The position numbers and the translations under genes are program-made. DNA of 64,000 nt from contig CM059445.1 of assembly GCA_030390025.1 (NCBI GenBank), forward strand, positions 40,176,001 through 40,240,000. Reading direction: 5' to 3'. This document shows positions 954 to 63,644 of this stretch, in pieces. This DNA is from Squalus acanthias. Taxonomy: Eukaryota. How positions within the stretch are numbered: position 1 is the first letter of the stretch; the number at the start of each line of letters is the position of its first letter. Below the pieces are notes generated by a model, which saw nothing but the letters and a program-made list of their open reading frames with translations, was not told the origin of the DNA and ran no database searches.

Positions 954-1054
954 GGAAAGGTTCCCTTTGTCCCTGGGCAAAGTGTGAAGCTCAACTAGTA
1001 GAATGGTTCTGGCCTGTCGGTTGTGTATTGCACTCTGCAGGTACCCAAGTATAT

Positions 1055-4000
1055 GGCGCCTAATTTGCGGTCGGAGGCTTCCCGTGGGCGGATGCCTCCG
1101 ACCGGCAAAAAATCTACGAGCTTACCTTCTGCCTCGGGAACCACGGAGACTCGCGCTCCTAGAAACATAGAAGATAGGAGCAGGAGTAGGCCATTCGGCC
1201 CCTCGAGCCTGCTCCGCCATTCAATGTGATTGTGGCTGATCATCCAAATTCAGTACCCTGTCCCTGCTTTCGCCCCATATCCCTTGATCCCGTTAGCCTT
1301 CAGAAATATATCGAACTCCTTCTTGATTATATTTAATGAATTGGACTCAACTGTCTTCTGTGGTAGTGAATTCCACAGGTTCACCACTCTCTGGGTGAAG
1401 AAATTCCTCCTCATCTCAGTCCTAAATGGCTTACCCCTTATCTTAGACTGTGACCCCTGGTTCTGGACTCCCCCGCCATCGGGAACATCCTTCCTGCATC
1501 TAGTCTGTCTAGTCCTGTTAGAATTTTATAAGTTTCAATGAGATCCCCTCTCATTCTTCTAAACTCTAGCGAATACAAGCCCAATCGACCCAATCTCTCT
1601 TCATACATCATTCCTGCCATCCCAGGTATCAGTCTGGTGAATCTTCGCTGCACTCCCTCCATGGCAAGAACATCCTTCCTCAGATAAGGCGACCAAAACT
1701 GCACACAATACTCAAGGTGTGGTCTCACCAAGGCCTTGTACAACTGCAGCAATACATCCTTGCTCCTGTACTCGAATCCTCTCGCTATGAAGGCCAACAT
1801 ACCATTTGCCTTCTTAACCGCCTGCTTCACCTGCATGCTTACCTTCAGCGACTGGTGCACAAGGACACCCAGGTCTCGTTGCACTTCCCCTTTTCCCAAT
1901 CTATTGCCGTTCAGATAATCTGCCTTCCTGTTTTTGCCACCAAAGTGGATAACCTCGCATTTATCCACATTATACTGCATCTGCCATGCATCTGCCCAAT
2001 CACCCAACCTGCCCAAATCATACTGGAGTTTCTCTGCATCCTCCTCACAGCACACACGCCCACCCAGCTTTGTGTCGTCTGCAAACTTGGAGATATTAGA
2101 TCTAGTTCCCTCGTCTAGATCATTAATATATATTGTGAATAACTGGGGTCCTAGCACCGATCCCTGCGGTACCCCACTAGTCACTGCCTGCCACTCGGAA
2201 AAAGACCCGTTTATTCCAACTCTTTGCTTCCTGTCTTCCAACCAGTTTTCTATCCAAGTCAGTACCTTACCCCCAATCCCATGTGCTTTAACTTTGCACG
2301 CTAATCTCTTATGCGGGACCTTATCGAAAGCCTTCTGAAAGTCCAAATACACCACATCCACTGGTTCTCCCTTATCTATTCTACCAGTTACATCCTCAAA
2401 AAATTCCAGTAGATTAGTCAAGCATGATTTACCTTTTGTAAATCCATGTTGACTTTGTCTGATCTTGTCACTGTTTTTCAAGTGCTCTGCTATTACATCT
2501 TTTACAATGGACTCTAGCATTTTCCCCACTACCGATGTCAGGCTTACCATTTCCCCATTTTCTCTCTACCACCTTTTTTAAATAGTGGGGTTACATTAGC
2601 TACCCTCCAATCCATGGGAACTGTTCCAGAGTCTATAGAGTTTTGGAAGATGACCAGCAATGCATCTACTATTTCTAGGGCCACTTCCTTAAGTACCCTA
2701 GGATGTAGATTATCAGGCCCTGGGGATTTATCGGCCTTCAATCCTGTCAATTTCCCTAACACTATTTCCCTACAAATACTGATTTCATTCAGTTCCTCCC
2801 TCTCATTAGACCCTATGTTCCCTGACATCTCTGGAAGGTTATTTGTGTCCTCCTTTGTGAAGACAGAACCAAAGTATGTATTTAATTGGTCTGCCATTTC
2901 TTTGTTCCTCATTATAAATTCCCCTGAGTCTGAATGCAAGGGACCTACGCTTGACTTCAGCAATCTTTTTCTCTTTACATATCTATAGAAATTTTTAGAG
3001 TCAGTTTTTATGTTCGCTGCAAGGTTACTCTCATATTCTATTTTCCCCCTCTTAATTAATCCCTTTGTCCTCCTTTGCTGAATCCTAAACTGCTCCCAAT
3101 CCTTAGGTTTGCTGCTTTTTCTGGCCAATTTATATGTCCTCTCCTTGGATCTTATGCTATCCCTAATTTCCCTTGTTAGCCACGGTTGAGTCATCTTTTT
3201 TGTTTTATTTTTATGCCAAACAGGGATGAACAAATTCTGTAGTTCATCCATGCGATCTTTAAATGTTTGCCATTGCCTATCCACCGTCAACCCTTTAAGT
3301 AACGTTCACCAATCCATCCCAGCCAACTCGCGCCTCATACCATTGTAGTTTCCTTTATTTAAATTCAGCACCCTAGTCTCTGAGTCAACTACTTCGCTCT
3401 CTATCTTAATGAAGAATTCTATCATATTATGATCGCTCCTCCCCAAGGGGCCTCGCACAACAAGATTGCTAATTAATCCTTTCTCATTACATAATACCCA
3501 GTCTAAGATGGCCTGATCTCTAGTTGGTTTCTTGACATATTGGTGCAGGAAACCATCCCGTATACACTCTAAGAATTCCTCCTCCACAGTATTGTTACCA
3601 ATTTGGTTAGCCCAATCTATATGTAGACATGCGTAGAGGCCCATGTATCCCAGGGGCGCAGGCGGTTCTCGAGTGTCCCTGGATCACGTGGGCCAGGCCA
3701 ACAAATGACAGAAGGTGGATCCCCATTCATTCTTATCGGGATTCTGTATGTACGGAATCCCCATAAATATGAATGGGAATACCCCTCAAAAAATACCTCT
3801 ACACTTCAAATAAAAAAATTTTAAATCACGTTTAAAATTAATTAAAGTGGCATTTAATTAAATATTTAAAACAAAAATTGAAGGGGCTAAAATAAGCTTA
3901 CCTTATTTCACAGGTTTTTAAATGGTATAAATTATTGATAATTTTATTTTTCTGATTTTTAAAACTCTTACGCTGGTAAAAGCAGGCCTTACGACTGCTT

Positions 4001-6439: not shown

Positions 6440-6530
6440 ATTATGTTAAAAAATATCGGATGGAAATCTAAAACTGGTCATCATTTAAATATGCCCTTAC
6501 TTTACAGCTTTAACCACCTGATCTGCAGCC

Positions 6531-6600
6531 ATGGTTACAATTGCTGGCATCATCTGCACCGTGATTTTCTCAACATTTGTACTGAAAGAAAATGCTGCGA
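6531..6600 (+). CDS. Gene A coding exon 1: signal peptide MVTIAGIICTVIFSTFVLKENAA
   Basis: Strong Kozak gcagccATGG; hydrophobic leader; phase-1 donor GA|gtaagt at 6601; upstream acceptor ttactttacag| at 6507. Confidence 0.85.
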
Positions 6601-6627
6601 GTAAGTATTGAAATGATGCAACTGAAT

Positions 6628-7062
6628 GTCAGCTGTGGCTCAGTAGGTAGCACACTCACCTGTGAGTAAGAAGGTTGTGTGGTTCAAATCCCACACCAGT
6701 GCACAACATTCTAAGCTGTACCCTCAGTACTGAGGGAGTGCTGCACTGGTGGATCTGCCGTCTTTCAGATGAGGCGTTAAACCGAGGCTCCCGCTGTTCT
6801 CTCGGGTGGATGTAAAAGATCTCATGGCACTATTTTGAAGAAGAGCAGGTTATCCCCGGTGTACTGGCCAATATTTATCCCTCAATCAACATAGCAAAAA
6901 CAGATTATCTGGTCATTATCACACTGCTGTTTGTAGGAACTTGCTGTGCGCAATTGGCTGCTGCATTTCACACAGTGACGACACTCGAAAGTTGGCTGTA
7001 AAGCGGTTTGGGACGTCCTGAGGTTGTGAAAGGTGCCGTATAATTGCAAGTCTTTTTCTTTT
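6628..7062 (+). mobile_element. tRNA-derived Deu-domain SINE (SacSINE1-like) with L2-type tail
   Basis: A box gtggctcagtaggtag, B box ggttcaaatcc, Deu core cagtactgagggagtgctgcact, tail gtcctgaggttgtgaaaggtg...gcaagtcttt. Confidence 0.85.
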
Positions 7063-9510
7063 TCAATCAAGATGCTTAGGAACAGTGACTGAAAAGAACA
7101 ATTAATTGGCTTTGAGGTGTTTTGGGATGCCCTGAGGATGTCAAAGCTGTTCTTTAAATGCAAGAAATTTCCAGTAACATTCTTTTAAAAGCCACTTTTG
7201 CACCTGTTGTGGATACAGTGCAGCCGGTACAAAGGCAAATGTGCAGGACTACATCCTCACGCCAGTTTCACGCAGTTTATCCGACCTCAATGAGCTGTCA
7301 CATTAGTTACCTCACTCCCAAAATATATAGCAGTGTCGGTGCAAGCCAGATTTTTTTTTAGTGTTGTGAAAATGATCTTGTACATCAGTTGAATTCAGGG
7401 CAGAATTGGTTTTCTCTTCCCTTTATTTGTTCTTAATTTCCAAGAATTGTATGCAGGATAACTATCATTAATTGCTTGGTTTAGTGCAAGTGATTAAATC
7501 CAGCAAAAGGTATAATTTGCTGATCTTTAAATTTTTAGTATTCTTGACTGTTTGATACTTCTTACTAATGGAGGACATTTGTGATGAAAACAAAATGAAT
7601 TCTTCTTTGGGGAATAGCTAACTTTAAAAAAGGCATCTTTAACTTTTTTAGGGGGAGGTTTACAAGGGATGCTTTTATTAAGTTTGGTGGGCTCCAGCAA
7701 GTTTTAAAGAATAGCTGAGAAGCAGGAAGCTACTCAGCTTAAACATTCACAGGCCTTTCTAAGTAATGAGAAATAGGATTCAATTTATTACCATTGGTTC
7801 ATTTATTCGATTTGCAATTTGATAAAGTCAGATGGAAGTTAAGAATATTGGAAAATGTTTAAACATAATCTCACTGAATTGAGGAAATACAATTGTTTGT
7901 GATTTTTTTTTAAAGTCCATATTGCGCTTGGCTAAGTGAGGGAAGTTGCTACTGGGAAATGGATCATTTCCAATTTTGGATTTCAAGCAATCACAAGTCA
8001 GTTTGTAGCATCATTCAATGCAGAGTGAAGTCCCAACAAAGTGACTCAGCCCCAAACTCAGAGAGTGCTGGCTATTGTATTGTGGCCTGTTTCCAAGAGT
8101 GCCCAGCAAAGAGGGAGGGGAGGGGAGGAGAGGGGGGAGGAAATAGCCGAAGCTGCACCTTGAGATATCAGGCCGGGGCTGGGCAGGTACCAGTCCTAGC
8201 TGATTCGTGCATTAGGCCAAGGTCAGACAGAGTCACTGGGTGGGGATGGGAGGGGGGATTGGGGGAGAGGAGGAGAGGGGGGAGGGGAGGAGCTAGAATG
8301 GGTGCCCAGGAGCTCAGCGTCACAATTATTGCTGAATTTTAAGATGAAATGAAATAAAAATTAAAATGTAGCTGACCTGAGTGGGACTATTTGCTAATAC
8401 ATTAAGAGAAAAATTGAAGTTTTAAATGCAGCCAATTCTGGCGGAGGCTGCCGAGAGGTCTCGAATGTAAAAACATGACTTCGTCTTTAATTTTGCAGGT
8501 GAGAAGGGATGCAGGAGGCTTAAAGACAGCAAAAATTTTAAAAAATTAAGTATTTTAAAAAAAAGTTGAAATACATGTATGTTCCCTGAAGTAAAACCAA
8601 GATGGCTGACAGTCTCTGCCAATTTCCAGAAACCTAGGGAACTAGAGCTTGTGATGTTCCATCTGGGAACTTTGGGACATTAGGCCATCGGGACATCCTG
8701 AGGTCATGAAAGGTGCTATATAAATGCAAGTCTTTCTTTTCTTTCTAATGATGTAAGTGTGCAGTAGGCGTGATGGCTAGGAGCTTCTAACTTAGTAATG
8801 GGAAATCCATTAGCAGTGAGGCAAAGCAAGAATTGGGCTGAGGAACTAAGTTCATTCGGGGAATGTTAAATTACCTTTTTAGAGAGTGTGAGAGTGTTAT
8901 TGTAGAGAGAGCCTCCCAACTGGTTTATCTCTTCTGGTATTAAAAGTAGGGAGAATATCTTTTCCCTCAGTTGTAATTTATTGACTAATAATGTTCCTCA
9001 CATGAATGTGTAATTTGGGTTAATCTATGTGTTTTAGTATTTCAGTAATTTTATGATATAAGCATAAGCCCACAACTTGCTATCACCTACATTATTTAAA
9101 TGTAGTTCGCTGTCTACTAAAATCAGGTATGAAAATGCAATTGTTATTGTACTGGATTGGCAACCTAAAGGTCATGAGTTCAAATCCCATTATGTCAAGT
9201 CATGAAATTGAATTGAATAAATTTGGTCATTTGTGGCTCGTCACTCATGCTGAACATGAGTCACCCGAGTCACTCGTGTTCAGCACCTTCTGTGAGTCTT
9301 CTAGGTTGGCACAGGTTTTAAAGTGTATCATTCCAAACCTATCTGATGACTTCCCTAATGTACATACCCTGTGAGTAGTAATAACTGAAGAAAAGTGAAA
9401 TTCTGATGCCCTGACTTTTGCACATAACTTGGTGAGATCAAGACAACCTGAATGAAGTGATATTGTTTTCAAATACTGAATATGCTCTTTATCCATTTTT
9501 TTTAAAACAG

Positions 9511-9807
9511 CGAGTCAGCATAAAGAACAGATTGCTACATCTGGCAAAGAGGGGGTGCTGACGTGCATCGCCCCTTTCAGGGCTGAAGTTGAGGAAACTA
9601 TTGTGTACTGGAAAAATAACTCTGACTTTATTTGCTATGTAAAAACCAAAGAAATCAAATGTGAAGGATTGCAGCATGATGCAGCTAAAGGAATAATGAC
9701 TTTAACTATCCCAGAATTAACTTTATCAGATACTGGAAAATATACCTGCAGCATCTTCACTAAAAACAATACCCATGAATGCAACATTAATCTGGTTGTA
9801 AAAGTTG
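9511..9807 (+). CDS. Gene A coding exon 2: V-type Ig domain (99 codons)
   Basis: Acceptor ttttttttaaaacag| and donor G|gtaagt, phase 1/1, 297 nt; GKEGVLTC...VYWK...TLTIPELTLSDTGKYTC...INLVV carries the canonical Cys, Trp and DxGxYxC. Confidence 0.92.
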
Positions 9808-11182
9808 GTAAGTTCTTTTTTCATAAATATTGGGTGATAGGTTAAGGTTTATATTTCAGGAGGTGTTAGCCCATTGTTAGAAATCAGGGGTGTTCAAAAT
9901 GTATGTGGTTTTGTGGATAAAACTGTGACATGAGTAATGCTGTATTTACATGATTGTATTAGAACTAGAGACAGAAGTCTCTCAGACTAGTCTTAGAATA
10001 ATTAGATAGATGCGTAGAATCTGCCTGTGTTTTGGTTCCCTGCGGATGTTATAGCATTCTGCAGTGTGACGGTCATAAATAATCTTGTTTTCAAGTTAGG
10101 ATTTCAACCTTGCTTCTGTTTCTCTAATTTGACCAACCAAGGCCCAACGTTCTATTTCTTCCATTACTGCTAATAACCATTTTATAATGCTAAGGTAGGA
10201 TTTTGACTTTGTTTAACAAAACTGCTTTAAAATGCATAATTTAACCAGTGTATGAGAATAGAATAGAAGATATCTTTGGGAATTTAATGATTCATTCCAT
10301 GGTACAATAGTCTGATAATGAAATAGTTCGTTTTGCATAGCTAAAGCTGCATGAACAGCATGAACATAAATAACTGATAACAAGCAGTTACGAACATCTG
10401 ATGGCCAAGAATGGCATGCCCGACTCCAAACTAGGGAGGATAGAGACACGAGAGATAAGACACGAATTCCAAAGGAAGAACCTTCAGAAAGATTAAACAA
10501 TAAGACAAATTGAATGAGGTAATGAGACCCCCTTTTGGGGAGGGCTTTCATCCAAGAACCAAGACAAAGAACTTGAGCTGTCATTGGGTGATGAGGTTTT
10601 AGAGAAACCTCTATAGATTAAATAGTCTTGTCAATAACTTGGCCTCAGGCCCACCCCTAAAAAGAGAATAAAAGTGACACCCCAAGGGCTTTCCCACACA
10701 GACGGTGGAGGGGAGAGCCAAAGAGAAGTTGGGCTGGTCGAACGCTCTTTTGAGAGTGATCCCATGCTCACCATCGAAGGCCCGAGAGCATTTATAGTCC
10801 ACTGTTCCCTTGGAATGACATTCCTGAACTGCCTGCTTTTCAGAAACTTTCCATTATGCTTCATGCAGCATTTGACCATTGATGTTTAGACTTTTTTTAT
10901 TATGACTCGGTCCCATTTTCCAACTAGATGTTCCACAGATTCCCTTCTGAGAAATTTAAACTGGAACTACCTGCTGCATCTGAGAGCCTGCTCCACATAT
11001 CTACTACTTGAGAACTCTATACTGGTGTCCTTAGTTCTTTGCTCGCAGTCCAAGTTAAATAACTTGCATTATCCACTCCCCTCACGGTTTATTTATTATT
11101 TGAACTTGAATCATGTCTGCTCTGAATCTTCTTTTCTGCAGTGCAGATCACTTCAGTTTTATAAATCTCTCCTCATAATGTT

Positions 11183-12860
11183 GGAGCCCTAATATTGGCT
11201 GCGATTTAGCCGACCGGGGCGGCTGGGGTTGGTGTCGCGGTCCCAGCCCGCTGCCTACTCCAGCCCGCACTCTCCGAGTGATTTTACATAGAAACATAGA
11301 AGATAGGAGCAGGAGTAGGCCATTCGGCCCCTCGAGCCTGTTCCGCCATTTAATGAGATCATGGCTGATCATCCAAATTCAGTACCCTGTCCCTGCTTTC
11401 TCCCCATATCCCTTGATCTCCTTAGCCTTAAGAAATATATCTAACTCCTTCTTGAATATATTTAATGAATTGGCCTCAACTGTCTTCTGTGGTAGAGAAT
11501 TCCACAGGTTCAGCACTCTCTGGGTGAAGAAATTCCTCCTCATCTCAGTCCTAAATGGCTTACCCCTTATCCTTAGACTGTGACCCCTGGTTCTGGACTC
11601 CCCCGCCATCGGGAACATCCGTCCTGCATCTAGTCTGTCTAGTCCTGTTAGAATTTTATAAGTTTCAATGAGATCCCCTCTCATTCTTCTAAACTCTAGC
11701 GAATATAAGCCCAATCGACCCAATCTCTCTTCGTACGTCATTCCTGCCATCCCAGGTATCAGTCTGGTGAATCTTCGCTGCACTCCCTCCATGGCAAGAA
11801 CATCCTTCCTCAGATAAGGCGACCAAAACTGCACACAATACTGAAGGTGTGGTCACACCAAGGCCCTGTACAACTGCAGCAAGACATCCTTGCTCCTGTA
11901 CTCGAATCCTCTTGCTATGAAGGCCAACATACCATTTGCCTTCTTAACTGCCTGCTGCACCTGCATGCTTACCTTCAGCGACTGGTGCACAAGGACACCC
12001 AGGTCTCGTTGCACTTCCCCTTTTCCCAATCTATTGCCATTCAGATAATAATCTGCCTTCCTGTTTTTGCCACCAAAGTGGATAACCTCGCATTTATCCA
12101 CATTATACTGCATCTGCCATAGGGTTTGTTAAGCCCGCCCTGCGAGGTTCCCGGCCAATTAAACGGAAGCGGATCTGATGACGTCACTTGGTGTCGCGTC
12201 ATCAGCCGGTGTCCTTAAAGGGGCCATGTCCACATTCATTTTGACAGTTGTTCTGTCAGTGGTCTACAGCATTGATGGGCTGCAAACACTGACAAGCACT
12301 GCACAGAGGTGGACGGTTGCACCCAGGCTCACGCATGACCCCCTCCATATGCTTATGGAGGGAGTTACAGCCGCAGGGAGATTCTCTTCCCTTCCACTGG
12401 GCGGAAGAGACCTCCCCAGGATTGCAACACAGCCTGGTTGCACTTTGCACAGGAGGACACAAGCAGGGATGTTGTCAGGAGGACCAGGCTGCAGTGGCGC
12501 AAACCTTTCAATGATGCCAGTAGATCACAAAATATTACTGCAAAGCCACACTCAACCTCATCCTGCTGTGCCTCTCATCACATCCCCATCACTCTGCCTT
12601 CCCTACCCTACTCCTGCACATCCTTACTCACACCAACTTACCTTGCACCTTCACCCATCCCTCTCTATCTACATTATCACTTCCCCATCTCACTAGCCAC
12701 CCCTCACACTCACCGTCATCCTAGTCCAATCATGCCAACTAACAACACACACGGGTAGGCACGTGGGTGTTTTATGCAATGTTCATGTAAATTTTCTGTT
12801 AATGTGTTGTCAAACATTGAAATCTTTATATTCAACACTTTGCCGTAGTGGGCAGATCTG
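11183..12860 (+). mobile_element. Harbinger-derived element with degenerate Myb/SANT (NAIF1-like) exon, interrupted by CR1
   Basis: 12121-12860 translates in mixed frames to APRLTHDPLHMLMEGV...LHFAQEDTSRDVVRRTRLQWRKPFND; homologous to the inverted copy at ~30200-30963; the left arm 11183-11285 continues across the CR1. Confidence 0.75.
11286..12122 (-). mobile_element. CR1 LINE 3' fragment, same young subfamily as 1160-3627
   Basis: ORFs 11853-12113 and 11379-11834 (QFWSPYLRKD, RRNFFTQRVLNLWNSLP); flanked by catag on both sides. Confidence 0.95.
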
Positions 12861-13660
12861 TGCCAATATATCCTTCCTGAGGTGCGGTGCCCAAAACTGA
12901 ATGCCGTACTCCAGATGGGGTCTGATCATGGCTTTGCACAACTGAAACATCACTTCCTCACTTTTGAATTCCAACCCCTTGAGATAAACGCTGACATTCC
13001 ATTTGCCTTTTCGTACCTGTGCACTAGCTTTTAGTGATTTTTGAACATGGACACGTAAATCCCTTTGCTCCTCCACAGCTCATAGGGGGAGAAATTCGGT
13101 ATCGCCCCGTTTGGGGCGCAATTATCGGCCGGGCGCAAATTTCTTGATTCGAATTCCATCTGCCATAACTTTGCCCATTCACTTAGTCTGCCTGTGTCAA
13201 ATTGTAATTTCCTGCTCCCATCTACACAACTTACTGTGCCTGCTAACTTAGTTTGATCTGCAAACTTGGATATAGAACTCTCTCTTCCTTCATTCAAGTC
13301 ATTAATATATATAATGTAAAGCTGAGGTCCCAGTACAGATCCCTGGGGAACACCACTTGTCACATCCCACCGATCAGAGAACTTTCCCTTTATTCCTGCG
13401 TTGTCTCCTACAACCCAACCAGTTATCAACCCATGTCACAAGGTTACCTCCAAGTCTGGTGCTTTTATTTTTGCCAATAATCTCTTGTGCAGAACCTTAT
13501 CAAATGACTTGTGGAAGTGCATATAGACAACATCCATAGACATTCCCCGAACCACCACACTAGTGGCCTCCTCAAAAAATTCAACTAGATTGATCAGACG
13601 TGGGCTACTCTTCACAACTCCATACTGACTCTCTTTGATCAGCTCATAATTGTCCAAGTG
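12860..13660 (-). mobile_element. Older degenerate CR1 RT fragment with a short MITE end inserted at ~13083-13150
   Basis: SGVPQGSVLGPQLYIIYINDL, FADQTKL, IRPHLEYGIQFWAPHLRKD. Confidence 0.85.
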
Positions 13661-13694
13661 AGGGAAGTTTATTCTTTCTTGTCGATATTCAAAA

Positions 13695-13886
13695 GCTAAT
13701 GTATGGAATATAAAATGGGCGAATGTATGGAATATAAAATGGGCTAATGTATGGAATATACAATGGGCTAATGTATGGAATGTAAAATGGGCGAATGTAT
13801 GGAATATACAATGGGCTAATGTATGGAATATAAAATGGGCTAATGTATGGAATATAAAATGGGCTAATGTATGGAATATAAAATGG
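13695..13886. repeat. 24-bp minisatellite, ~8 copies
   Basis: Unit gctaatgtatggaatataaaatgg, with few substitutions. Confidence 0.95.
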
Positions 13887-14129
13887 TATTTTGCTGTTCA
13901 TGCCATACAAATGTAAATATCAATCTATCTGGTGTCTATAGTATGTAGGAAGAGGCTTTTGAACTTGTGGGATGTGAGCACACTGATTGCTCAAATGCTC
14001 CAATCAAAAGCCATGATGCATTCTTAAAAAGAAATAGGATCAACCAATCAAAAAGAGCTATCTGTAACAGAACATTTGCTATTTTAGCCATCACGGGTGA
14101 GGGGGAGGGAATGCCATGTGAATATAGTG

Positions 14130-14420
14130 CTTTTAGCACAGTGAAAAACCCCAAGGTGCTTTATAAAAGGCGGGATGGGGGAGGTGGGCGGAGAACAGGC
14201 AGCAAGAGTTAGAAAAGTTACGGGAGGTGATATGACTTGGTTGAAGAGTGGCTTTGAGGAGGCGATTGAATTTGGAGAGAGATGTTGCAAGGTGGAGAGG
14301 TTTGGGGAGAGAGTGCCAGAGTGCAGGACTGAGGTCGTTGAAGGTTAAATAAGCCAGGGTTGGAGGAGTGGAGATTGCAGACTAGACTTGGGGCAAGACG
14401 AGGTTTGAGAGAGTCACTGG
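14130..14420 (-). mobile_element. L2 LINE 3' end remnant
   Basis: Degenerate L2 tail (cccaaggtgctttata; ggttgaagagtggctttgaggagg). Confidence 0.55.
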
Positions 14421-15219
14421 TGAAAGATTATTTGCATTGGTTGGTTTAACAGTAACAATGAAACATAAATTTAACATTGTACTCAAAAATAAAAAGCTGA
14501 CCATGATATTTTTTCACACAAAGATTATTAGGATATGGAATGCATTACTGAAAGTATGTTAAAGTCGATTCAATTGTGCCATTTAAGGGGGAATCAGGTA
14601 AGCACTGGAAAAACAAAAATATGAATGGGGGCTAGAATCGGTAGATTTGTCACTAATGCTTTCTATACTGAAGTTTCTATGATTCTAGTACTCATGGTAT
14701 ACTTCAAGTGCAGTCAGAAAACTCCAAACTGCCCCTTAAATTGTCTTTGATCACATGGATACTAACTCAGTCTTTGTTCCTCAGAAAATTGAAGCCCTGT
14801 GGTCCTCAAAGGGTAAAATGTGACTAATAGAGCTTTGTTTTACATCAGGATGTCTCACATGAAACTCAGCAATTTCTTCATGTGCAAGTCAGCTGATGTT
14901 TATGTGAACCCGTATGACTAAACATTCCATGTAACCATATTAATATTTCGATTTATAGTTTATTTTCATGATGTGTTTTGTGCCAGAAGTTAGCTCCTTA
15001 AGCAGATATAAAGAGGCCAGTTCCCACTATGCTTTATCCCCTCCCCACATCCCCAGTTAATAACAGTTTGAGGTAGTCATTGCACCTCACCACTGTTTAA
15101 AGGAAACCATCAATACAACATGGATATTTTTTTCTTTCAGCTTTCAGTGTGCAAATCTCTCATTTTGTTTTAAACTTCTGACACCTCAGCACCAAGTTTG
15201 ACAGTTACAAATAAGCTTC

Positions 15220-16178
15220 GAATGAAAACTGAAAATACTGAAAATGCTCAGCAGGTCAGGCAGCACATCTGGAGTGAGAAACAAAGTTAACGTTTCAGGT
15301 TGATGACCTTTCATCAGAACTGGAAAAAGTTAGAGATATAACCGGTTTTAAGCAAGTACAGAGTCAGAGAAAGGGGAGAGGGGGATGAAAGAACAAAAGG
15401 GAAGGTCTGTAATCAGGTGGAAGGCAGGAGAGATTAAATGACAAAAGGGATGGTGCAAGACAAAAGGGGACGGTAATGGGACAAGTAAAGAAACAAAAGA
15501 TGGGTCGAGAGGAGGTGTATATGAGAATTCCAGAATAATTGCCAACAGCTGCTGTCTGGAAAAAATGGGAGCAGTGGTTATGATCTGAAATTGTTCAACT
15601 CAGTGTTGAGTCTGGAAGACTGTAAAATGCCTAATCGAAAGATGAGGTGCTGTTCCTCGAGCTTCCATTGTTCATTAGAACAGTGTAGGAGGCCAAGGAC
15701 AGAGAGGTCAGAGTTGGAGTGGGATGGACAATTAAAATGACATGTGACCGGAAGCTCAGGGTCACGCTTGTGGACTGAAAGGAGATCTGCATTTCACTCA
15801 AGCTGCATTTGGTCCCCCCCACTGTAGAGGAGACCGCATCGTGAGCAGCAAATACAGTACTCATTTGAAAGAAGTGAAAGTAAATTGCTGTTTCACCTGG
15901 AAGGAGTGTTTGGGGCCCATGACGGTGGGAAGGGAGGAGGTAAAGGGGCAGGTGTTGCATCTCCTACGCTTGCACGGGAAGGTGCCGTGGGAAGGGGAGA
16001 GGCTGTTGGGGGTGATTGAAGCGTGGACCAGGGTGTCGCAGAGGGAACGGTCCCTTTGGAATGCTGAAAGGGGAGAGGAGAGGAAGATGTGTGTGGTGGC
16101 GGCATCACGCTGGAGGTGGCGGAGGATGATGCGTTGAATGTGGAGGCTGGTGGGGTGGAAGGTGAGGACAAGGGGACC
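15220..16178 (-). mobile_element. Penelope-like retroelement fragment (GIY-YIG endonuclease end)
   Basis: Terminal motif aaatgctcagcaggtcaggcagc...gttaacgtttcaggt..gacctttcatcagaac; minus-strand frames give GPKHSFQVKQQFT...YCICCSRCGLLY, typical of the Penelope endonuclease region. Confidence 0.8.
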
Positions 16179-17560
16179 AGTTTCTAAAAGGAATGTTTTG
16201 AGGTTGTGTTGAAAATTTGCAACTGTTAACAGAATTTATTTTTTTGTTTGCAGTGTGTGCCTCACTTCACCTCGGGTCTAGTAAACTGTACAAGACCAGG
16301 GGATCAAATGAGGTGTTTGATGAAGCCTCATTGTATCTAACTAGTGAAACAAAATCTATTCTGAGAGCTGATATTTCTGCTGCTCCGAGGAAAAATTCAG
16401 TTTAGCTGGGTGGACTTGAGCAGCCTGACGAGAGGGACCTTCAAATAACTGGACCTGATGTTAGGGTTTAACCTGATAATTACCCCTGAAAGATGAATTC
16501 CAAAATGTGGGTTAATCTTCATAAAATTTTAAAATGCAGACATCAATAACACCCTACTCCCTTCTTTGCTGTAAATGAGTCGGGTCATATGACACAGGAT
16601 ATGACCCTACCCCCTCCAAAAAAAACCTGGAATTGTGCTGTTGATTGAGTTCATCGTGCATTGCCAAAGTGAGCTCTTCTTTTCAAAAAAAAAAGCTTGC
16701 TATGATTTCCCGATTTGACCCAAAGAGATTATTTTTGGCATATTTGCTTGCAGCTAACCATCAGATATTTTGTAAAACCCAGATTGAGGAAAGAAAGAAT
16801 TCCCAAAAATCAGAAGGCCTGATTGCAGGTGAACACCTATCGGCATCATTCTTAATCAAAACCGGCCCAAGCTGCAACAAGATAAACCCCAGGCAAAAAC
16901 TGCTGTGTCAATGGCTTTTAGTTTGTAATGAAGTGGTTTAACTGGCTTTCGTTTGTCGATTTGAAACAATTGAACTGAGGAAGCTTAGGGAAACTAAAAC
17001 TGCTTTTCCTTCCCCTTTTTTTTGGCTTAAATTAGTGTATTTATAGTTTTAGTTTCAGAAAGGGTTTGGTAGGGATCTATTTTTTTTCAAACTTTCATTA
17101 TGAAATCAAACTTGTAAAGCATTATTTATATTTAACATATTTTCCTTTTACTGCTGAAAATTGATGTGGGTGGAAATGGGCACTGACTCCCGGAGCAGAT
17201 CAGTGCTGGGGGACTAGCTGGGAGGAATTACTGGGGCTCGATTATCGGAAGTAGCTCAAGTAATGCACACTGTTCCAAGTGCTGTGATCACCGAAATTGC
17301 ATTTCTGATACTAAAGTAGTTCCTCACTAAGGCATGGGTCAGTAATTCTCCCACGAGTTTCTGCTGCTTTATCTTCGATGCTTGTTGGTGCTTTGGGCAA
17401 GAACATTGCAAATTCCGACATACACTGGGCGTTTTCCACTCCTTCTACCAGTCACCCAGCCGTTGGAGAAACTCATTCCTGTTAATGCATGGTGTCTGCA
17501 TTTCAGTTTACTGGGGGAGGAAGAGAAGCGGTCTCTGTACTCTCTGTAGATATACATGTC

Positions 17561-18227
17561 GGCCTGGAGTTTCTGCTAGGTTGCACTTCATTTTTTTCAG
17601 CGCAATTCACCCGAAATAGGCCAAACCAGCACAAAAGATCAGAATGTCAAGCGCAAATCGAGTTTCCGCGATCTTTGTGCTAGTTTATAAAACATTGCAC
17701 TAGATGCCAGTCCCACCCACCAAACTGATCAGGCCCCCAGAATGAATTAATCACCATTGCAGGTTTCCAGTGATGGCACCTGTTTGCAGGCCTTCGAGGA
17801 GGTTCTTAAAAGTAAGCTGATTCTTTTGGGCACAAGTTCACTAATAGGCACGTTTTAAAAGCTTTTCAATATTTTTTTAATTTACTAAAACACCAATATC
17901 ACTAGCAAATGGTTCGGTATAGTTTTTTAAAGTAATTTTCAGTTATTTAAAATGGAATTACTCACAGGTTGTGGACTAGACACTCATTAAAAATGTTTAT
18001 TTTTTGTGATAACCCAATTGTCAGCTGAATTAATCAAACTGCTCCAAGTTACCACTCTTAGATATATTAAGGAATACTTTTTAAAACAATTTAAATAAAA
18101 ATTGTCTTCTGAAACGCTGGTTCAGGGCAGATTTTGTGTTCGGTGATGTGCAGAAACTTAACAACCAGCACAATTATGGGTGCACTCGCCAGATCGCTGA
18201 TTGCGCCCAAAGCGGAAACTCCACCCC
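17561..18227. mobile_element. MITE with imperfect TIRs
   Basis: ggcctggagtttc ... gaaactccacccc; GC-rich ends and AT-rich core. Confidence 0.5.
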
Positions 18228-18638
18228 TCAGAAATGTCTGGGCCTTGACTGGTTGGACTAGCCACCTGTGGAATGCTATTGGCCAGAGTTGTAAATGTGG
18301 GTTGTGAGGTTGGATTAGCGTTCAGAATTGTCTAGAATTCTCTAGAGTTGCTTAATTTGCTTTGGGTGGGGGAGGAAACTTCACAAAGTTTATTTTTTCG
18401 AGCGTTCACCGTGAGCGATATTTCTTCCAGAGAGTGAATGGGTTAAATAGCGTACATGTTGGAACAGTTTGTACATGGGCTGCGTGGAGAGGGACGTAAT
18501 GGACTTTTCTCCTTCCATACTTTTATTGTGCTTCATTTTAAGTGTTCCTTTTTAAAGCCTGAACTGCTATTTTAGCAGTTCAAATGAATTGTTCTAGGTA
18601 ATCCTGTCTCAAAAGTGTCCATCCTCTTTTTATTATAG

Positions 18639-18686
18639 ACCCAAGAAGAAGTAGGAATGGATCCAATGGAATTTGCTTAAAAGCAG
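18639..18686 (+). CDS. Gene A coding exon 3: stalk DPRRSRNGSNGICLKA
   Basis: Acceptor cctctttttattatag| and donor CAG|gtgaga; 48 nt, phase 1/1, open in frame with exon 2. Confidence 0.75.
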
Positions 18687-19723
18687 GTGAGAACATCAGC
18701 CTGACTGGGCTTGGCTCATTTTTTAACACAAACAAAAATGTGCTGTTGAGTCAGTGGATGACTATTCAATTCTAGGATGAAGTCAAAACCCTAGAAAGTA
18801 AAGGATATATAACCAGACAATAGTCTGACAGGGATGGGGGTGGGGGGTGGGATGTTCAGATTATGTAAACTGATAGGCTGAAGCTTGAGTAGATCAGAAG
18901 TCTCTCATGACTCCCAACTATTGCCCTCATGATCACACTAATTAAAGTATCTTTTCACATGTTCTGCTCTGGACCTTGTGGCTGTACCTTTCCTCTGTTT
19001 CGTCATTAGTGGATGCTGATAACTGATTTCCATATTGTTGATTTGCAATTAGATCCACATTGAAGAATCTGAAATTATAATGTGATCAGTGTTTGATTTC
19101 CACAAAGTAATGCACTGATTACTCAAGTTCAAAAATGTCTATGTAAATCAAATTGTGGCCCAATTTCACAATTACTCCAGATGTACATTTTTGCTGCATT
19201 GAAGAATCATAGAATTTTACAGTTCATAAGGATATCATTCAGACCAACACAGTTTTTGATAACTCTAGACTCTGAGAGTGAACTCCTCACTGTTGCATAG
19301 CAACAGAATGCAGAACCTTGGGTTGGAAAGTTCACCTTTGAACTGCAGTCCTGTAAATGACATCAAACCAAAATGGTTATTTGTTAAATTGTACAGTTAA
19401 TATGTTAACCTATTTTTTCACTTTTTATTGAAATTTAGCCCTTTTACGGTGATCCTTCCCCACCTGCACCATTCCCTTACTGAGACCCCTCTTTGCCTAT
19501 TGAACAGTGCCACTCTTGACCTGTGTAAGAGCAACCCAGGTTGATTCATCAACCCAATCTCTGGAAATACCCTCACTACACCTTGATCTGACATTCCAGT
19601 TTAGACTAGGGTGGGATTGTAAAGAATTGTAGCATCAATCATCAGTTCTGTTGGTAATTGCTTACATGGCTTAGATATAAAATTAACCTGAATTTTTTAT
19701 TTTCATGTTTAATTTTTTTTTAG

Positions 19724-19788
19724 GTCCGATGTTTCTCTTACTTCCACTTGCATTGATCATTTGGAGTTTTCCATTAATTTCATTGTAA
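19724..19788 (+). CDS. Gene A last coding exon: hydrophobic C-terminus GPMFLLLPLALIIWSFPLISL* (GPI-signal-like)
   Basis: Strong acceptor (poly-T)tag|, phase 1; hydrophobic run ends directly in TAA at 19786-19788. Confidence 0.75.
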
Positions 19789-20259: not shown

Positions 20260-20265
20260 AATAAA
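20260..20265 (+). promoter_or_regulatory. Candidate polyadenylation signal of gene A
   Basis: First AATAAA I found after the stop (~470 nt); alternatives at ~23339 and ~23449. Confidence 0.35.
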
Positions 20266-20924
20266 GAATAAGGTAATTTTGGATACCGAAAAGGCCTTTC
20301 AAGGTTTCTGCATTGTCTGAGGAGGAAATGAAAGTGTTTTTGGTTCTTTGGAATTCAATGTGTAATTCTTCCTTTTATTTCCCCTTGAGCCCAACTTCTG
20401 ATTTTTTTTGTAGTCAGCTCCTAAAAATGCAAAAGGTTTATTTTACAACTGCTGACCATAAAGTAGTAGAAAAGCTGAGCTGAAGTCTCGTAGCTCCTTT
20501 TTTCAGCTTTGAAATATTTGAGCCGTACAGAATCAAAAGCATGGAGAAGTCACTGTGCATCGACAACATTAGTAGTTTGGTTTGTAAGGGATGGGACCTG
20601 CATTCTGACAGTAGTTAACATCAGACTTCAGAATTGGAGTTTGTATTGACAGAAAGGTAAATTGGGCCCATTAATGAGGGCATGAATCTGATCTCACAAC
20701 CCAATAGATAAAGAGAACTGGAGAAAGTGAGTAAATTCAATAGTTATATTGGGATAGGAGAGAGGAACTAGAAAACAAGATGGATGAGATTATTAGTTCC
20801 TCGCTGATTATTTAATGGATGGTGCAGATAAAAACTAAACAAAATGGCATTGTGCATAAGTTTTCTTTACCCAGTTTCCAGTCTGATTAAATGTTACTGG
20901 GCTTCGGCATCTGAATACATAAAT

Positions 20925-21482
20925 ACCTTGAACTGTATAAAACACTAGTTAGGCCGCAGCTAGAATACTGCTTGCAGTTCTGGTCACCGCATTACAGGAA
21001 GGATGTGATTGCACTAGAGGGGATACAGAGGAGATTTACGAGGATGTTGCCTGGGCTGGGGAATTTTAGCTATGAGGAAAGATTGGATAGGCTGGGGTTA
21101 TTTTCTTTGGAACAGAGGAGGCTGAGGGGAGACCTAATTGAGGTGTATGAAGTTATCAGGAGCCTAGATAGAGTGGATAGGAAGGACCTATTTCCCTTAG
21201 TAGAAGGGTCAATAACCAGGGGGCATAGATTTAAAGTAATTGGTCGGAAGTTTAGAGGGGATTTGAAGAGAATTTCTTTCACCCAGAGGGTGGTGGGGGT
21301 CTGGAACTCACTGCCTGAAAGGGTGGTAGAGGCATTTAAAAAGTACTTGGATATGCACTTGAAGTGCTGTAACCTACAAGTGCTGGAAAGTGGGATTAGG
21401 GTGGATAGCTCTTGGTCAGCCGGTGCGGACAGGATGGGCCGAATGGCCTCCTTCTGTGCTGTAAATTTCTATGATCCTATGA
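20925..21482 (+). mobile_element. CR1 LINE 3' fragment
   Basis: ORF 20972-21496 (QFWSPHYRKD...FTQRVVGVWNSLP); tail ttctatgatcctatga. Confidence 0.93.
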
Positions 21483-21659
21483 AATTGTTTTCATAAACTG
21501 GACGTCATAATTTCTACTCTTTGCTATTGTGCATCTGCAAAGACTATACAAGTGACCAGCATAACTGTGGCAGTCACGTCTGGTGTCTGTGACACAAGTT
21601 GTGGTGATGTTAGTTAGCTACTGTAGAAGTTGCTCGGTTATTCACGTCTGCCAGCTGTC

Positions 21660-22675
21660 AGTGGTCGAATTACAGTTCGCAGACGACGCTTGCGTCTGCG
21701 CACACTCGGAGGTCGAATTCCGAACCATCGTCAACACCTTCACCGAAGCATACGAGAGCATGGGCCTTACACTAAACATCCGTAAGACAAAGGTCCTCTA
21801 CCAACCTGCCCCCGCCACACAGTACTGCCCCCCGATTATCAAAATCCACGACAAGGCCTTGGACAACGTGGACCACTTACCATACCTCAGAAGCCTACTG
21901 TCAACAAGGGCAGACATCAACGACGTAGTCCAACACCGCCTTCAGTGTGCCAGTGCAGCCTTCGGTCGTCTAAGGAAGAGAGTGTTTGAAGACCAGGACC
22001 TCAAACCCGGCACTAAGCTCATGGTCTACAGAGCAGCAGTGATAACCGCCCTGCTGTATGCCTCAGAGACATGGACCATGTACAGCAGGCACCTCAAAGC
22101 ACTGGAGAGGTACCACCAACGCTGCCTCCGCAAGATCCTGCAAATCCATTGGCAGGATAGGCGCAACAACGTCAGTGTTCTTGCTCAGGCCAACATCCCC
22201 AGCATCGAAGCTTTGACCACGCTAGATCAGCTCCGATGGATGGGTCACATTGTCCGCATGCCCGATACGAGACTCCCAAAACAAGCGCTCTATTCGAGGC
22301 TCCGGCACGGCAAGAGAGCCCCAGGTGGGCAGAGGAAACGCTTCAAGGACACCCTCAAAACCTCCTTGAAAAAGTGTAACATCCCCACCGACACCTGGGA
22401 ATCCCTGGCCCAAGACCGCACAAAGTGGAGGAGAAGCATCCGGGAAGGCGCCGAACACCTCGAATCTCTTCGCCAGGAGCAAGCGCAGGCAGCGCAAGGA
22501 GCGCAAGGAGCGCACGTCAACCCAAGCACCCCACCCACCCGCCCCTTCAACCACCGTCTGCCCCACCTGTGACAGAGACTGTAGGTCCCGCATTGGACTC
22601 ATCAGTCACCTGCGAACTCATTTTTAATGTGGAAGCAAATCATCCTCGGTTCTGAGGGACTGCCTAAGAAGAAGA
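21660..22675 (+). mobile_element. RTE-clade LINE 3' fragment
   Basis: Starts at VVELQFADDAC (RT catalytic motif); same family as 1-953; (AAG)n tail. Confidence 0.93.
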
Positions 22676-23520: not shown

Positions 23521-24132
23521 CTGGAGGAGTGCAGAAGATGGTGTGTGTGTAGTCCTCTGGAGGAGTGCAGAAGATGGCATGTGTGTAGTCATCTGGAGGA
23601 GTGCAGAAGATGGCGTGTGCGTAGTCCTCTGGAGGAGTGCAGAAGATGGTGTGTGTGTAGTCCTCTGGAGGAGTGCAGAAGATGGTGTGTGTGTAGTCCT
23701 CTGGAGGAGTGCAGAAGATGGTGTGTGTGTAGTCCTCTGGAGGAGTGCAGAAGATGGTGTGTGTGTAGTCCTCTGGAGGAGTGCAGAAGATGGCGTGTGT
23801 GTAGTCCTCTGGAGGAGTGAAGAAGATGGTGTGTGTGTAGTCCTCTGGAAGAGTGCAGAAGATAGTGTGTGTGTAGTCCTCTGGAGGAGTGAAGAAGATG
23901 GTGTGTGTGTAGTCCTCTGGAGGAGTGAAGAAGATGGCGTGTGTGTAGTCCTCTGGAGGAGTGTAGAAGATGCTGTGTGTGTAGTCCTCTGGAGGAGTGA
24001 AGAAGATGGCGTGTGTGTAGTCCTCTGGAGGAGTGCAGAAGATGCTGTGTGTGTAGTCCTCTGGAGGAGTGCAGAAGATGCTGTGTGTGTAGTCCTCTGG
24101 AGGAGTGAAGAAGATGCTGTGTGTGTAGTCCT
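23521..24132. repeat. 36-bp minisatellite, 17 copies
   Basis: Unit ctggaggagtgcagaagatggtgtgtgtgtagtcct, head to tail with no spacers. Confidence 0.97.
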
Positions 24133-24784
24133 CCTAATGTTGGTTGCACTTGTAAAGAGCCTGACTCTCTGTTCCAGCAGAAGCCGACACCCACTTTTCT
24201 TTGCGAGCTGCTGCTGGACTTAATGGGCCTGTTTCCGGCCTGCGAAAAGTCTGCAGCTGGTTTAGTGCTTCAAAGCTGACCAATTAAAACCTTCAGTTTG
24301 AAATGGAGAACCATGGTGATGTTGCTGCACTGTGATCATGTGCCGAACATAGCTTTCTATTTTCCCCGTGGTCGTCATAAGGGCACAGTGATAATGGCAC
24401 CATGAGAGATAAAATAAACAAGGGAGGAAATTGCTGAGGTTGATATCGCTGCTCTTTAACTGTATACTCTATCTTTTGTAGCGATAGTCCTGTGGGGAAA
24501 AGGTGGGGATTGTGATCCATTACTATTCAAAGGGTGGTTTATGTTGTTTAGTACTATTCACAATTTGATTTAATCTATAGAAAAATAGATGCTGTTTAGA
24601 CTGTGAATTTGGACCATGTTCTAATGTCCTAAACCGTGTGGGCATTTCATGAATATAACTCATAACAGAACTTTAAGACTAAATTACAACCATTACTTCT
24701 CATCTGATCTTTCAGATAATCTATAATTATAAACATCTGTTTTATTACATCATTGTTTATATTCACACTATCCCGGTGGAAAAG

Positions 24785-46906: not shown

Positions 46907-46931
46907 CTACAGTTGCAAGGGCTGTCCCGAT
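46907..46931 (-). CDS. Gene B exon 6: 25-nt cytoplasmic microexon DRDSPCNC(R)
   Basis: Near-consensus sites attcttctcattccacag| and AG|gtaagt; phase 1 to phase 2. Confidence 0.75.
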
Positions 46932-48022
46932 CTGTGGAATGAGAAGAATTATGTATTATTAAGAAAATTCTGCACTCTTTATATGCTTCATTATTGTGGC
47001 ATTTGGGAGGTTATTTCTTAAAGGTCCGTTTGATTATTATTGCATTGCAAGCCCTATTTTATACACTTCTGGTTATCGTTTCTGCATTGTCTTGATGCAT
47101 CAGTTGTTGCTGGTGTTTGGTGTTTTTTTGTTTGCTTTGCAACACTGTTGCTGCAGAATCCTTTGCCCACCACACTCTTGCTGATTGCTACTATTTTACA
47201 GGCAGTGTGCTCATTTTTCAGCATGAGAATTCCTTTTCGGAATTCCTATGGTGCTCCTAGATTTAGAAGAGGAAGCTAAGAAAATCAGGCATACTTTCAC
47301 CTGAGGCATTTGGTCCATTCTTGTCCTTGTTGCAGGAGCTACATGTTCAGGTCTTGGCAAACCTATCTACCTTTATTGTCTATAATTCACGATAGAGACT
47401 ATGACTGAATTATGCGGTCTTCTTGACCAGGACCTCCACACACAGGGACAGCTCTGTCGGGCATTGAAATGCAAAGCTACCATATCCTTCCAAGCCACCA
47501 CTTGATACTACAGTCCGGATGAAATCTCAGATTTCTTTAATGAAATAAATTGGCTTACTACATGTAAGCACATCTCTTAACCACCTCCACAATGACTGTG
47601 CATTGCTAAAAATTTTCAGAAATGTGTATTTTTTTCCCCAGCTTAAGCCCCTGTATTTCAGAACAAATTGAACATCTACACCTTTCTATTAATATTTATG
47701 TTTACAACCATCCTTTTAAATGACCATTTCATTTGATGCAGAGATTCAGCACTGAATAGCATGCTCATCCATCATCTGTGACATGCTATCTCTGCGACAC
47801 TTCATTTACTACATCTTGCAACCACTCTATACAACTGTAATAATGGTGTTGACTATCATTTTCCCATGACCAATCCTTATTGAGCAGGTTTGATGGCTTG
47901 ATTTTTTTGCTCATTCCAAATTCTCTTAACTAAACCAAATCACATCTAGTGGTGAATGAGTTAATGCCTATTAAGACTGTCACTTCACATTTGTGCTTCT
48001 CGTCAGCTATTGGTTAATTTAC

Positions 48023-48106
48023 CTTTCCATTTAATGCCCCAGATCAGTAATAAAATTACAGACACCGCAAAGATTGGCACTGATACAGATCGGACAGGAA
48101 AACTAC
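48023..48106 (-). CDS. Gene B exon 5: transmembrane SSFPVRSVSVPIFAVSVILLLIWGIKWK
   Basis: Acceptor ttttctgttccttcacag| and donor AAG|gtaaat; 84 nt, phase 1/1; hydrophobic run followed by a KWK stop-transfer. Confidence 0.85.
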
Positions 48107-50039: not shown

Positions 50040-50357
50040 TTTTCCAACCAGATGTTATGTATATTCCTACAGCAAGTTCTTTCAAGCCATATTTATTTTC
50101 TGCTCTGCAAATATACTCTCCATTGTCTGAATCATCAACACTCCTTTTCGTCAAGCCAGAACTGTTTACTCCAGCTTCCAATTGTATGCTTTGCCCCAAT
50201 AATTTCTTTTGCCAGATAACTATGGGTTCTGGGTTACTGTGCGCTGTACATTTTAGTTCAAGAAATGACTGGGGCGTAACATGGATGCTGTCTTGGAGCA
50301 GTGGTTGAAGCTGATCTGAATCAGAAGTCCTGTAACGTATGATGGGCTGTGGACCAT
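50040..50357 (-). CDS. Gene B exon 4: I-set/C2 Ig domain
   Basis: 318 nt, phase 1/1; YGPQP...LELKCTAHSNPEPIVIW...DDSDNGEYICRAENKYG; canonical splice sites. Confidence 0.92.
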
Positions 50358-52189: not shown

Positions 52190-52540
52190 AATTCACATTT
52201 AGGGTTATACTTTTTATTATCCACTCTTTACTTGTCGTATGAAGGACCTGACAGGTACAGATTGTCCTATGGTCTTCTTGCAAGATGGGCTTAAAAATCA
52301 TTTGACTGGTAACATTAAATGTGCCATCCGAATTCCTTAAGGTGGGCAGTCTAGTCGTATATCTAATTTTATCATCTGCTTCTGAAGGTTGAGCATTGTG
52401 AGAAATGGTTTGATCTTGGTGTAGCCATTTAATAGAGATATTCTGAGGATAAAATCCACCAGCGAGGCACTTCACAATCGACTCATGCCCGGCTACTAGT
52501 TCTTCCAGAGTAATAGAAATTGCTGGAGGAGATGGTGGGA
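52190..52540 (-). CDS. Gene B exon 3: C1-set Ig domain
   Basis: 351 nt, phase 1/1; CLAGGFYPQNISIKW...NSDGTFNVTS...TCQVLH are C1 hallmarks. Confidence 0.95.
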
Positions 52541-54467: not shown

Positions 54468-54815
54468 CATCGACATGCAATCGTGTTCCTGGTCCTCTTC
54501 TCTCTAATGGCGGGTAGACAGTTGGTATCTTCACCACACAGGTATAATTATAATCAGAGAACTTGAAAGGAACATTTTCAATCTTCAATGATGCAACACA
54601 GTGCTTAAAACCACCCAGAGCAATGTCAAAAGTGCAGTTATGCTCATGACTTTCATTGGGAGTATCAGCGATTCCTGGAGGGCTTCTGTCCCAGTTTGTA
54701 TGGATCCAATCAGTCTCATTTGCAGTGTAATTAAAGATACAGTTTAACGTGACTGATTTTCCTCGCAGGACGCTGACCAGATGTGGCTGAGTCACCTCCC
54801 CAATCACCGGATGAC
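54468..54815 (-). CDS. Gene B exon 2: germline-joined VJ-type Ig domain
   Basis: 348 nt, phase 1/1; EVTQP...GKSVTLNC...W...SLKIENV...YTC...RGPGTRLHV (GxGT J motif in the same exon). Confidence 0.94.
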
Positions 54816-63586: not shown

Positions 63587-63644
63587 CTGTTACACCAGTC
63601 TGTGTCAGAAGGAACACCAACAGCTGCAGTAATATGCTCTCCAT
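63587..63644 (-). CDS. Gene B exon 1: signal peptide MESILLQLLVFLLTQTGVT(G)
   Basis: 58 nt; ATG followed by G; hydrophobic core; phase-1 donor CAG|gttagt matching the phase-1 V exon. Confidence 0.85.

Follow-up and report, generated by a model that had tools for sequence, protein, structure and literature searches.

We analyzed a stretch of Squalus acanthias DNA of 64,000 nucleotides, called the window here (GCA_030390025.1, contig CM059445.1, positions 40,176,001 to 40,240,000 of the forward strand; coordinates below count from its first letter). The window carries on its plus strand a small gene, the target of this study, whose four coding exons at 6531-6600, 9511-9807, 18639-18686, and 19724-19788 (70 + 297 + 48 + 65 = 480 nt) encode a conceptual product of 159 amino acids plus a stop, with AG/GT boundaries throughout and all introns in phase 1. 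The product has a single V-type immunoglobulin (Ig) domain and is predicted to be held at the cell surface by a glycosylphosphatidylinositol (GPI) anchor. The target locus comprises the following features:

6508..6530, plus strand: 5′ untranslated part of the first coding exon (acceptor score 4.7)
6531..6600, plus strand: coding exon 1, signal peptide (residues 1-23) ending in a phase-1 donor, placed by leader identity and tblastn
9511..9807, plus strand: coding exon 2, V-type Ig domain with a short C″ strand, placed by Pfam and AlphaFold2
18639..18686, plus strand: coding exon 3, 16-residue linker that includes S131 (S-x-G), the candidate site of GPI attachment, and the first part of the spacer, placed by the S-x-G alignment
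19724..19788, plus strand: coding exon 4, terminal hydrophobic segment up to the stop with no cytoplasmic tail, 17/21 identical to basking shark
20260..20265, plus strand: AATAAA, candidate polyadenylation signal, with ATTAAA also at 19926

An acceptor just before 6508 points to a non-coding exon farther upstream. The donors of the three target introns lie in the 98.1-99.7th percentile among all GT sites of the window and their acceptors in the 98.0-99.9th percentile among all AG sites, as scored with an approximate splice matrix. The initiator ATG is embedded in GCCATGG, and an in-frame stop lies 4 codons upstream. Because chance can produce a hydrophobic last exon (one follows 6 of the 204 strong acceptors on the two strands), we took homology as the deciding test for the gene model. 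Exon 4 is identical to the basking-shark protein at 17 of 21 residues, compared with a shuffle mean of 3.1 and 0 of 5000 shuffles as high, and the leader is identical at 14 of 23 residues to the leaders of basking shark and smooth-hound. When the orthologs were used in tblastn, exons 1, 2, and 4 were matched at their predicted coordinates, exon 3 was matched weakly (E 1.2-1.3, by skate-type proteins), and no second copy of the gene was found within the 64-kb window. We conclude that the four-exon gene is, with near certainty, real. A preliminary description, made from the letters alone, had proposed this gene of four exons and 159 residues, and splice sites, phases, ortholog tblastn, and exon-4 identity bear it out; the C terminus it quoted was reproduced on translation of the four exons.

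Other endings of the gene were considered. The exon at 19724 is the only notable candidate phase-1 hydrophobic exon between 9808 and 49900, and an alternative downstream transmembrane (TM) exon was rejected; no C-domain exon was present among the candidate phase-1 plus-strand exons of the same interval. A downstream mucin-stalk exon was likewise rejected, the 36-nt tandem array at 23521-24133 not being mucin-like on the plus strand. Rfam gave no match. Skipping of the 48-nt exon 3 would keep the frame and lose the candidate attachment site.

To place the protein among relatives, the V exon was used as a phmmer query against 1.84 billion representatives, which returned 240 matches at E ≤ 0.001. 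Among the best 150 of these 240, three were single-domain proteins with 41-47% identity, from Chiloscyllium punctatum (bamboo shark), Mustelus asterias (smooth-hound), and Rhinoraja longicauda; the others listed were summed weak matches in multi-domain proteins. A family profile search retained 5 of 880 word-seeded candidates, all shark or skate-type, and added Cetorhinus maximus (basking shark) and the skate-type protein P0153. When the V exon alone seeded the word search, no candidate emerged, and the family profile retained 0 of 7999 candidates among proteins of 280-2000 residues, which is weak evidence that the family has no longer relative. Over the 159 residues, identities to the target number 95 in Cetorhinus, 71 in Mustelus, 68 in Chiloscyllium, 66 in Rhinoraja, and 60 in P0153. 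Cetorhinus LOC144669245, Mustelus LOC144479844, Rhinoraja LOC144608712, and Chiloscyllium chiPu_0001670 (GCC23276.1) are probable orthologs, which like the target have a leader, a V domain, a linker, a tail-less end, a Cys eight residues after the C-strand Trp (W+8), and a C-x-G motif, at lengths of 156-159 residues. P0005 is the RefSeq isoform X2 of Mustelus, annotated without the hydrophobic end. In a six-row tree the target groups with the sharks, nearest to Cetorhinus, and the two skate-type rows stand apart (100/100).

Eight skate-type proteins are each encoded entire on contigs of 945-3121 nt; because the gene spans 13 kb in Squalus, we read these contigs as probably spliced transcripts. 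The family was found only in elasmobranchs as far as these searches reach. In the databases it appears as an automatically annotated gene of four named elasmobranchs, labelled “uncharacterized” or “hypothetical,” and a literature search, most subscription papers being outside its reach, found no published description of the family or its database identifiers. It is an elasmobranch family already predicted automatically and undescribed in the literature; the proposal of a new surface protein stands in that no published description was found, and falls in that four elasmobranchs already have it as a database gene.

An uncharged hydrophobic run after a small-residue site, ending the protein without a tail, is the layout expected by GPI-signal rules. 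An uncharged hydrophobic end with no tail is present in all six full-length proteins, whose last charged residue lies 17-33 positions from the end (the target has none within its last 22), and S131-x-G is shared by the target and 4 of the 5 full-length orthologs, 25-28 residues from the end. The layout of leader, V domain, linker, and tail-less end is kept in 5 of 6 related proteins, the exception being the short smooth-hound isoform. The TM exon of the neighboring gene, in contrast to the tail-less end of the target, is followed by basic residues. A rough insertion energy is positive in 5 of 6 tails, versus −0.46 for the neighbor's TM exon. From this pattern we predict, with good confidence, that the target is GPI-anchored. 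The preliminary claim of a tail-less GPI-signal layout is upheld, with conservation in 5 of 6 aligned relatives, and the anchor itself is a prediction.

We were concerned that the hydrophobic end might instead be retained as a tail-less TM helix, or that the main product might be secreted, either way without GPI. Some observations lean in that direction. The smooth-hound protein has no aligned S-x-G. In 4 of 5 orthologs the tail is conserved as well as or better than the V domain, which is odd for a peptide that is discarded (in skate, 13/21 versus 35/98 identical, p 0.048), and the basking-shark tail has a negative insertion energy on the same rough scale. The RefSeq smooth-hound isoform without the hydrophobic end would be a soluble product, and read-through of the V exon from 9808 in Squalus meets a stop after 12 residues and would likewise give a short soluble form. 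Against these stand the absence of basic stop-transfer residues and of a tail in all six full-length proteins, the 1-3 prolines within the last 21 residues of five of them, and a small-residue cluster 25-30 residues from the end, and we regard a product without GPI as quite improbable.

The single IgV domain of the preliminary description is confirmed by Pfam, in which exon 2 matches Ig_3 at 4.9e-7 and V-set at 2.5e-5, just under the curated cut-off, and by AlphaFold2, which with a 6-row alignment predicts a V-type sandwich whose C″ strand is very short (predicted local distance difference test, pLDDT, 85); the single-sequence fold was unusable (pLDDT 44). The target has Cys at 42 (B strand), 65 (C′), 74, 103 (F), and 114 (G), Trp at 57, and N-glycosylation sequons at 59 and 109. 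All 13 sequences have the B-strand Cys, the C-strand Trp, the Cys at W+8, and C-x-G, and 7-11 residues lie between the two extra Cys. The F-strand Cys is missing in smooth-hound and in all skate-type sequences, which have instead a G-strand Cys 11 residues on; bamboo shark has the F Cys alone, and the target and basking shark have both. These alignments suggest that members of the family differ in their core disulfide, which would be B-F in some and B-G in others.

The loop bounded by the two extra Cys differs in 8 of 11 columns among the eight skate-type variants, versus 9 of 148 columns elsewhere, a variation that is driven by three sequences and is a lead only. In these variants (P0153-P0160) the loop carries substitutions and a two-residue indel, with leader and tail nearly invariant, and the differences may be between alleles or between species, with ligands or pathogens as the selecting force. 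P0095 (Lampetra fluviatilis CAN0413234.1; 24 and 17 bits) has two V domains with I-[IL]-Y-C and then a second Cys a few residues on, a Cys pair that bears a loose likeness, in a different register, to the extra pair of the target family.

We next asked which known family the V domain resembles. When the Foldseek top 1000 were re-ranked by VIA-align, the CD80 V domain came first (Z 13.0, root-mean-square deviation [rmsd] 1.8, 92 aligned), and a wide fold search of 48,161 representatives put B7-H6 first (Z 12.8, rmsd 2.0, 97 aligned). The family profile matched CD80 V at E 5e-4. B7 V domains (CD80, PD-L1, B7-H6, and B7-H4) resemble the target in these top-ranked though tied folds and in a YW[KQ] C strand, and the target differs from them in having no TM or tail, a very short C″, and the extra Cys pair. 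Several results weigh against a B7-like assignment. CD48, 2B4, PD-L1, TREM2, T-cell receptor (TCR), and MOG folds lie within 1 Z of CD80, such that the ranks are ties. CD4 D2 matches in sequence at E 3e-8 over 40 residues, and IgLON D1 is also among the sequence matches. By language-model features the nearest cluster is Thy-1. Finally, the target has no C domain, unlike typical B7 proteins, whose ectodomain is described in PMC11599192 as V plus C.

Among eight named matches outside the family, the best domain score was that of a butyrophilin-like protein (28.5 bits). Thy-1, CD160, CD200R, and CD28 were in none of the listed top rows of three fold searches, an absence that excludes none of them, and only chance matches were returned when the B-to-E strands were searched by themselves against the PDB. 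Structure prediction with Foldseek, one of the checks that the preliminary description had suggested, returned a generic V-set fold and singled out no family, with B7, CD48, and 2B4 tied.

Thy-1 and CD160 needed separate consideration, since a strongly diverged elasmobranch ortholog of either would fit the length and layout. Thy-1, like the target, has a single V domain, a precursor of about 160 residues, and a GPI signal (predicted in the target). With the full bamboo-shark ortholog, the top three language-model feature clusters were Thy-1 (0.95-0.96; 183-190 of 256 features); with the V exon alone they were unnamed V-domain clusters, a difference suggesting that architecture underlies the Thy-1 signal. 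Thy-1 has three coding exons, an RLD motif, and a second disulfide that links a Cys of the A strand to one at the attachment site, and it is not known to have a C-strand Trp. The target has four coding exons, an invariant Trp57, no Cys in the A strand or at the attachment site, and no RLD motif. In CD160, which binds HVEM and MHC-I, the extra Cys pair begins at the C-strand Trp position; unlike CD160, the target keeps Trp57 and has its extra Cys at W+8 in all 13 sequences. Exon-3 read-through yields no TM segment, and hence no CD160-TM-like form by that route.

Neither Thy-1 nor CD160 was among the best 150 of the 240 phmmer matches, where the three elasmobranch relatives were the only single-domain proteins, nor among the word-seeded profile matches (all five retained being shark or skate-type) or the listed fold rows; the earlier statement that the protein has no obvious match to either agrees with these listings, despite the Thy-1 feature clusters. 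No marker gene was recognized in the window for the THY1 block or for a major histocompatibility complex (MHC) paralogon, the setting of B7 genes. The gene structure speaks for CD160: PMC9676924 gives it 6 exons, the first two untranslated and thus four coding, which matches the four coding exons that follow non-coding 5′ sequence in the target, and like the target it combines a single Ig domain with a GPI anchor (predicted in the target). For Thy-1, PMC6305390 reports two internal disulphide bonds. Weighing these points, we consider an ortholog of CD160 or Thy-1 improbable, and the target probably belongs to a family of its own.

Membership in other families was rejected. The CD28/CTLA-4 family is characterized in PMC11599192 by a PPP or EIP motif in complementarity-determining region 3 (CDR3), a TM segment, and a cytoplasmic Tyr motif; the target has a short FG hairpin without Pro and no tail. 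An extra C′-D Cys pair ending in C-x-G is a further CD28-family trait; the target has a C-x-G, but 29 residues before the F Cys versus 26 in human CD28. CD4 and LAG-3 have two to four Ig domains, a TM segment, and a CxC/CxH or (F/Y)xxL(D/E) tail (PMC10768021), and the target has a single domain, no tail, and a similarity that is local to E-F-G. SECTM1 carries two N-terminal invariant Cys and a GxYxWxLxGxQ motif (PMC4603632), neither of which is in the family alignment. Likenesses to CD200R D1, SECTM1, ICOS/TMIGD2, and LAG-3 supported membership in none of them. With LAG-3 there is one further parallel. Like some members of the target family, tetrapod LAG-3 domain 1 has lost the F-strand Cys and has one in the G strand, 11 residues further along, and the skate ortholog aligns locally and without gaps to that domain at E about 0.05; LAG-3 differs in being a four-domain TM protein. 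Because PMC10768021 describes the LAG-3 switch as a new acquisition of tetrapods, we read the B-F/B-G switch in LAG-3 and in the shark family as convergence. The B-F, B-G, and both-Cys states among close relatives would form a natural series for a LAG-3-type disulfide switch.

The neighboring gene lies at 46907-63644 on the minus strand, convergent to the target, and its six GT-AG exons join into an open frame of 394 residues:

63587..63644, minus strand: candidate leader exon, 19 residues, phase 1, in frame, with the best donor (4.6) of 4 leader candidates
54468..54815, minus strand: unsplit VJ exon with an IPTVYPP loop and GxG (Pfam V-set, 26 bits)
52190..52540, minus strand: C1-set exon (Pfam C1-set, 6.6e-11)
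50040..50357, minus strand: I-set exon (Pfam I-set, 4.4e-10)
48023..48106, minus strand: TM exon, then basic residues (acceptor 10.4, donor 5.7)
46907..46931, minus strand: candidate first cytoplasmic exon with CxC, in frame (acceptor 7.0, donor 7.4)

The neighbor is thus intact and non-rearranging, with the order leader-VJ-C1-I-TM, and was assigned to no family. A CxC just after the TM segment is found in the Lck-binding tails of CD4 and CD8. Later cytoplasmic exons were sought in the window and none was identified. The best PDB matches of the C1 domain were UrIg2 (2e-12), B7-H6 (3e-10), and SIRP-gamma (8e-9). A 139-nt run of N at 51265-51403 lies inside the C1-to-I intron. The CDR3 has the length of the shark CD28H/CD28X rows in supplement 4 of PMC11599192, with YPP two residues later than in CD28. 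Membership in the CD28/CTLA-4 family was rejected for the neighbor also, its ectodomain being VJ-C1-I and not a single V with a PPP/EIP CDR3.

Because a B7-leaning V domain here adjoins a receptor with a CD28-like loop, we chose the pair for complex modelling. With the two V domains, ESMFold2 gave ipSAE scores of 0.73, 0.72, and 0.73, versus 0.01 for the best of 3 controls; the runs had at least 91% of contacts in common, and partner pLDDT was at least 83. In the microbial calibration, the ipSAE mark applied was passed by 51 of 78 solved pairs and by 2 of 108 mismatched ones. Of 65 eukaryotic solved pairs that lack a similar older complex, 39 passed it, compared with 2 of 126 unrelated pairs. 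In the model, the neighbor makes contact through K95, P97, T98, Y100, P101, P102, W36, H38, and N40, and the target through its GFCC′ face (I54, Y56, F63, Y66, K68, S104, F106, K108, T111, E113, and N115). The geometry resembles that of the CTLA-4/B7-1 complex. Target Y56, Y66, and E113 are invariant in the family, outward-facing by strand alternation, and within the modelled interface. The predicted use of the GFCC′ face by the YPP loop of a CD28/NKp30-type receptor would be a further B7-like trait of the target. We conclude that the model supports binding between target and neighbor without demonstrating it.

Other aspects of the modelling count against this conclusion. Interface strand positions have a mean pairwise identity of 0.53 versus 0.35 at other outward positions, a borderline difference (permutation p 0.053) obtained from five rows (P0153 was dropped as a near-duplicate) with positions assigned by hand. 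None of the controls was an Ig V domain, all being unrelated proteins, and the high score may stem from the model having learned CTLA-4/B7. The target could instead be a GPI-anchored single-V adhesion protein or raft organizer, Thy-1- or CD48-like and unrelated to the neighbor, with the model recalling solved V-V complexes. The Thy-1 clusters of the bamboo-shark ortholog would fit such a protein, as would the CD48, 2B4, CD58, and CD2 folds tied with B7, and in the tool's older test 7 of 44 blind neighbors also passed. On the other side, false passes of the tool scored 0.34-0.59, below the 0.73 obtained here; distant relatives of true partners passed in 0 of 84 cases; and the docked loop is the CD28-family motif named in PMC11599192. 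We consider the adhesion alternative unlikely, though worth keeping in view, and we hold the specific claim that the neighbor is the target's binding partner to be doubtful to a similar degree.

Our favored explanation, which we put forward tentatively and at slightly less than an even chance, is that the target is a single-V B7-like ligand with a predicted GPI anchor, whose GFCC′ face is the predicted docking site for the proline loop of a VJ receptor of CD28/NKp30 type, likely that of the neighbor; the B7-like ligand role taken by itself we hold just as tentatively. Under this explanation, the target would enter the endoplasmic reticulum via its leader, lose its C-terminal peptide near S131 as a GPI anchor is added, and be displayed on the outer leaflet as a chain of about 107 residues bearing two N-glycans. 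C65 and C74 would form a disulfide that staples a variable loop, and C42 would pair with C103 or C114. The protein would act as a ligand at cell-cell contacts, its GFCC′ face being met by the proline loop of the VJ receptor. Because it has no cytoplasmic part, it would not signal alone and would act via a counter-receptor or raft partners. Read-through of the V exon might also yield a soluble form.

Few Ig proteins combine a single V domain with a GPI anchor, and the target would add a family from the most ancient surviving lineage whose immunity relies on antibodies and TCRs. The preliminary description had suggested a lymphocyte surface protein; should the target be a B7-like ligand, it may instead sit on a cell contacted by a lymphocyte. 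On a more speculative and rather unlikely view, the locus would carry a linked pair unknown from bony vertebrates: a B7-like ligand with one V domain and a GPI anchor, and a VJ-C1-I receptor that does not rearrange and has both a CD28-like loop and a CxC tail. Such a pair, if true, would be a testable linked ligand-receptor module bearing on the origin of B7/CD28 second signals and of non-rearranging VJ-C1 receptors. It would also represent a new branch of B7/CD28-NKp30 co-signalling, in which VJ-C1 antigen-receptor-like architecture is joined with CD28-type ligand binding.

The window also contains repeats. Minisatellites lie at 23521-24133, 58554-59115, and 13695-13886, with units of 36, 15, and 24 nt in 17, 38.5, and 8 copies, respectively; these arrays contain long repetitive open frames with no evidence of coding. 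Many reverse-transcriptase fragments of long interspersed nuclear elements (LINEs) are present, at 1-3700, 11300-13900, 20915-22650, 40000-40900, and 59374-63165. Some pairs of these fragments are 94-98% identical, for example 1442-1741 and 11572-11871, which points to recent activity.

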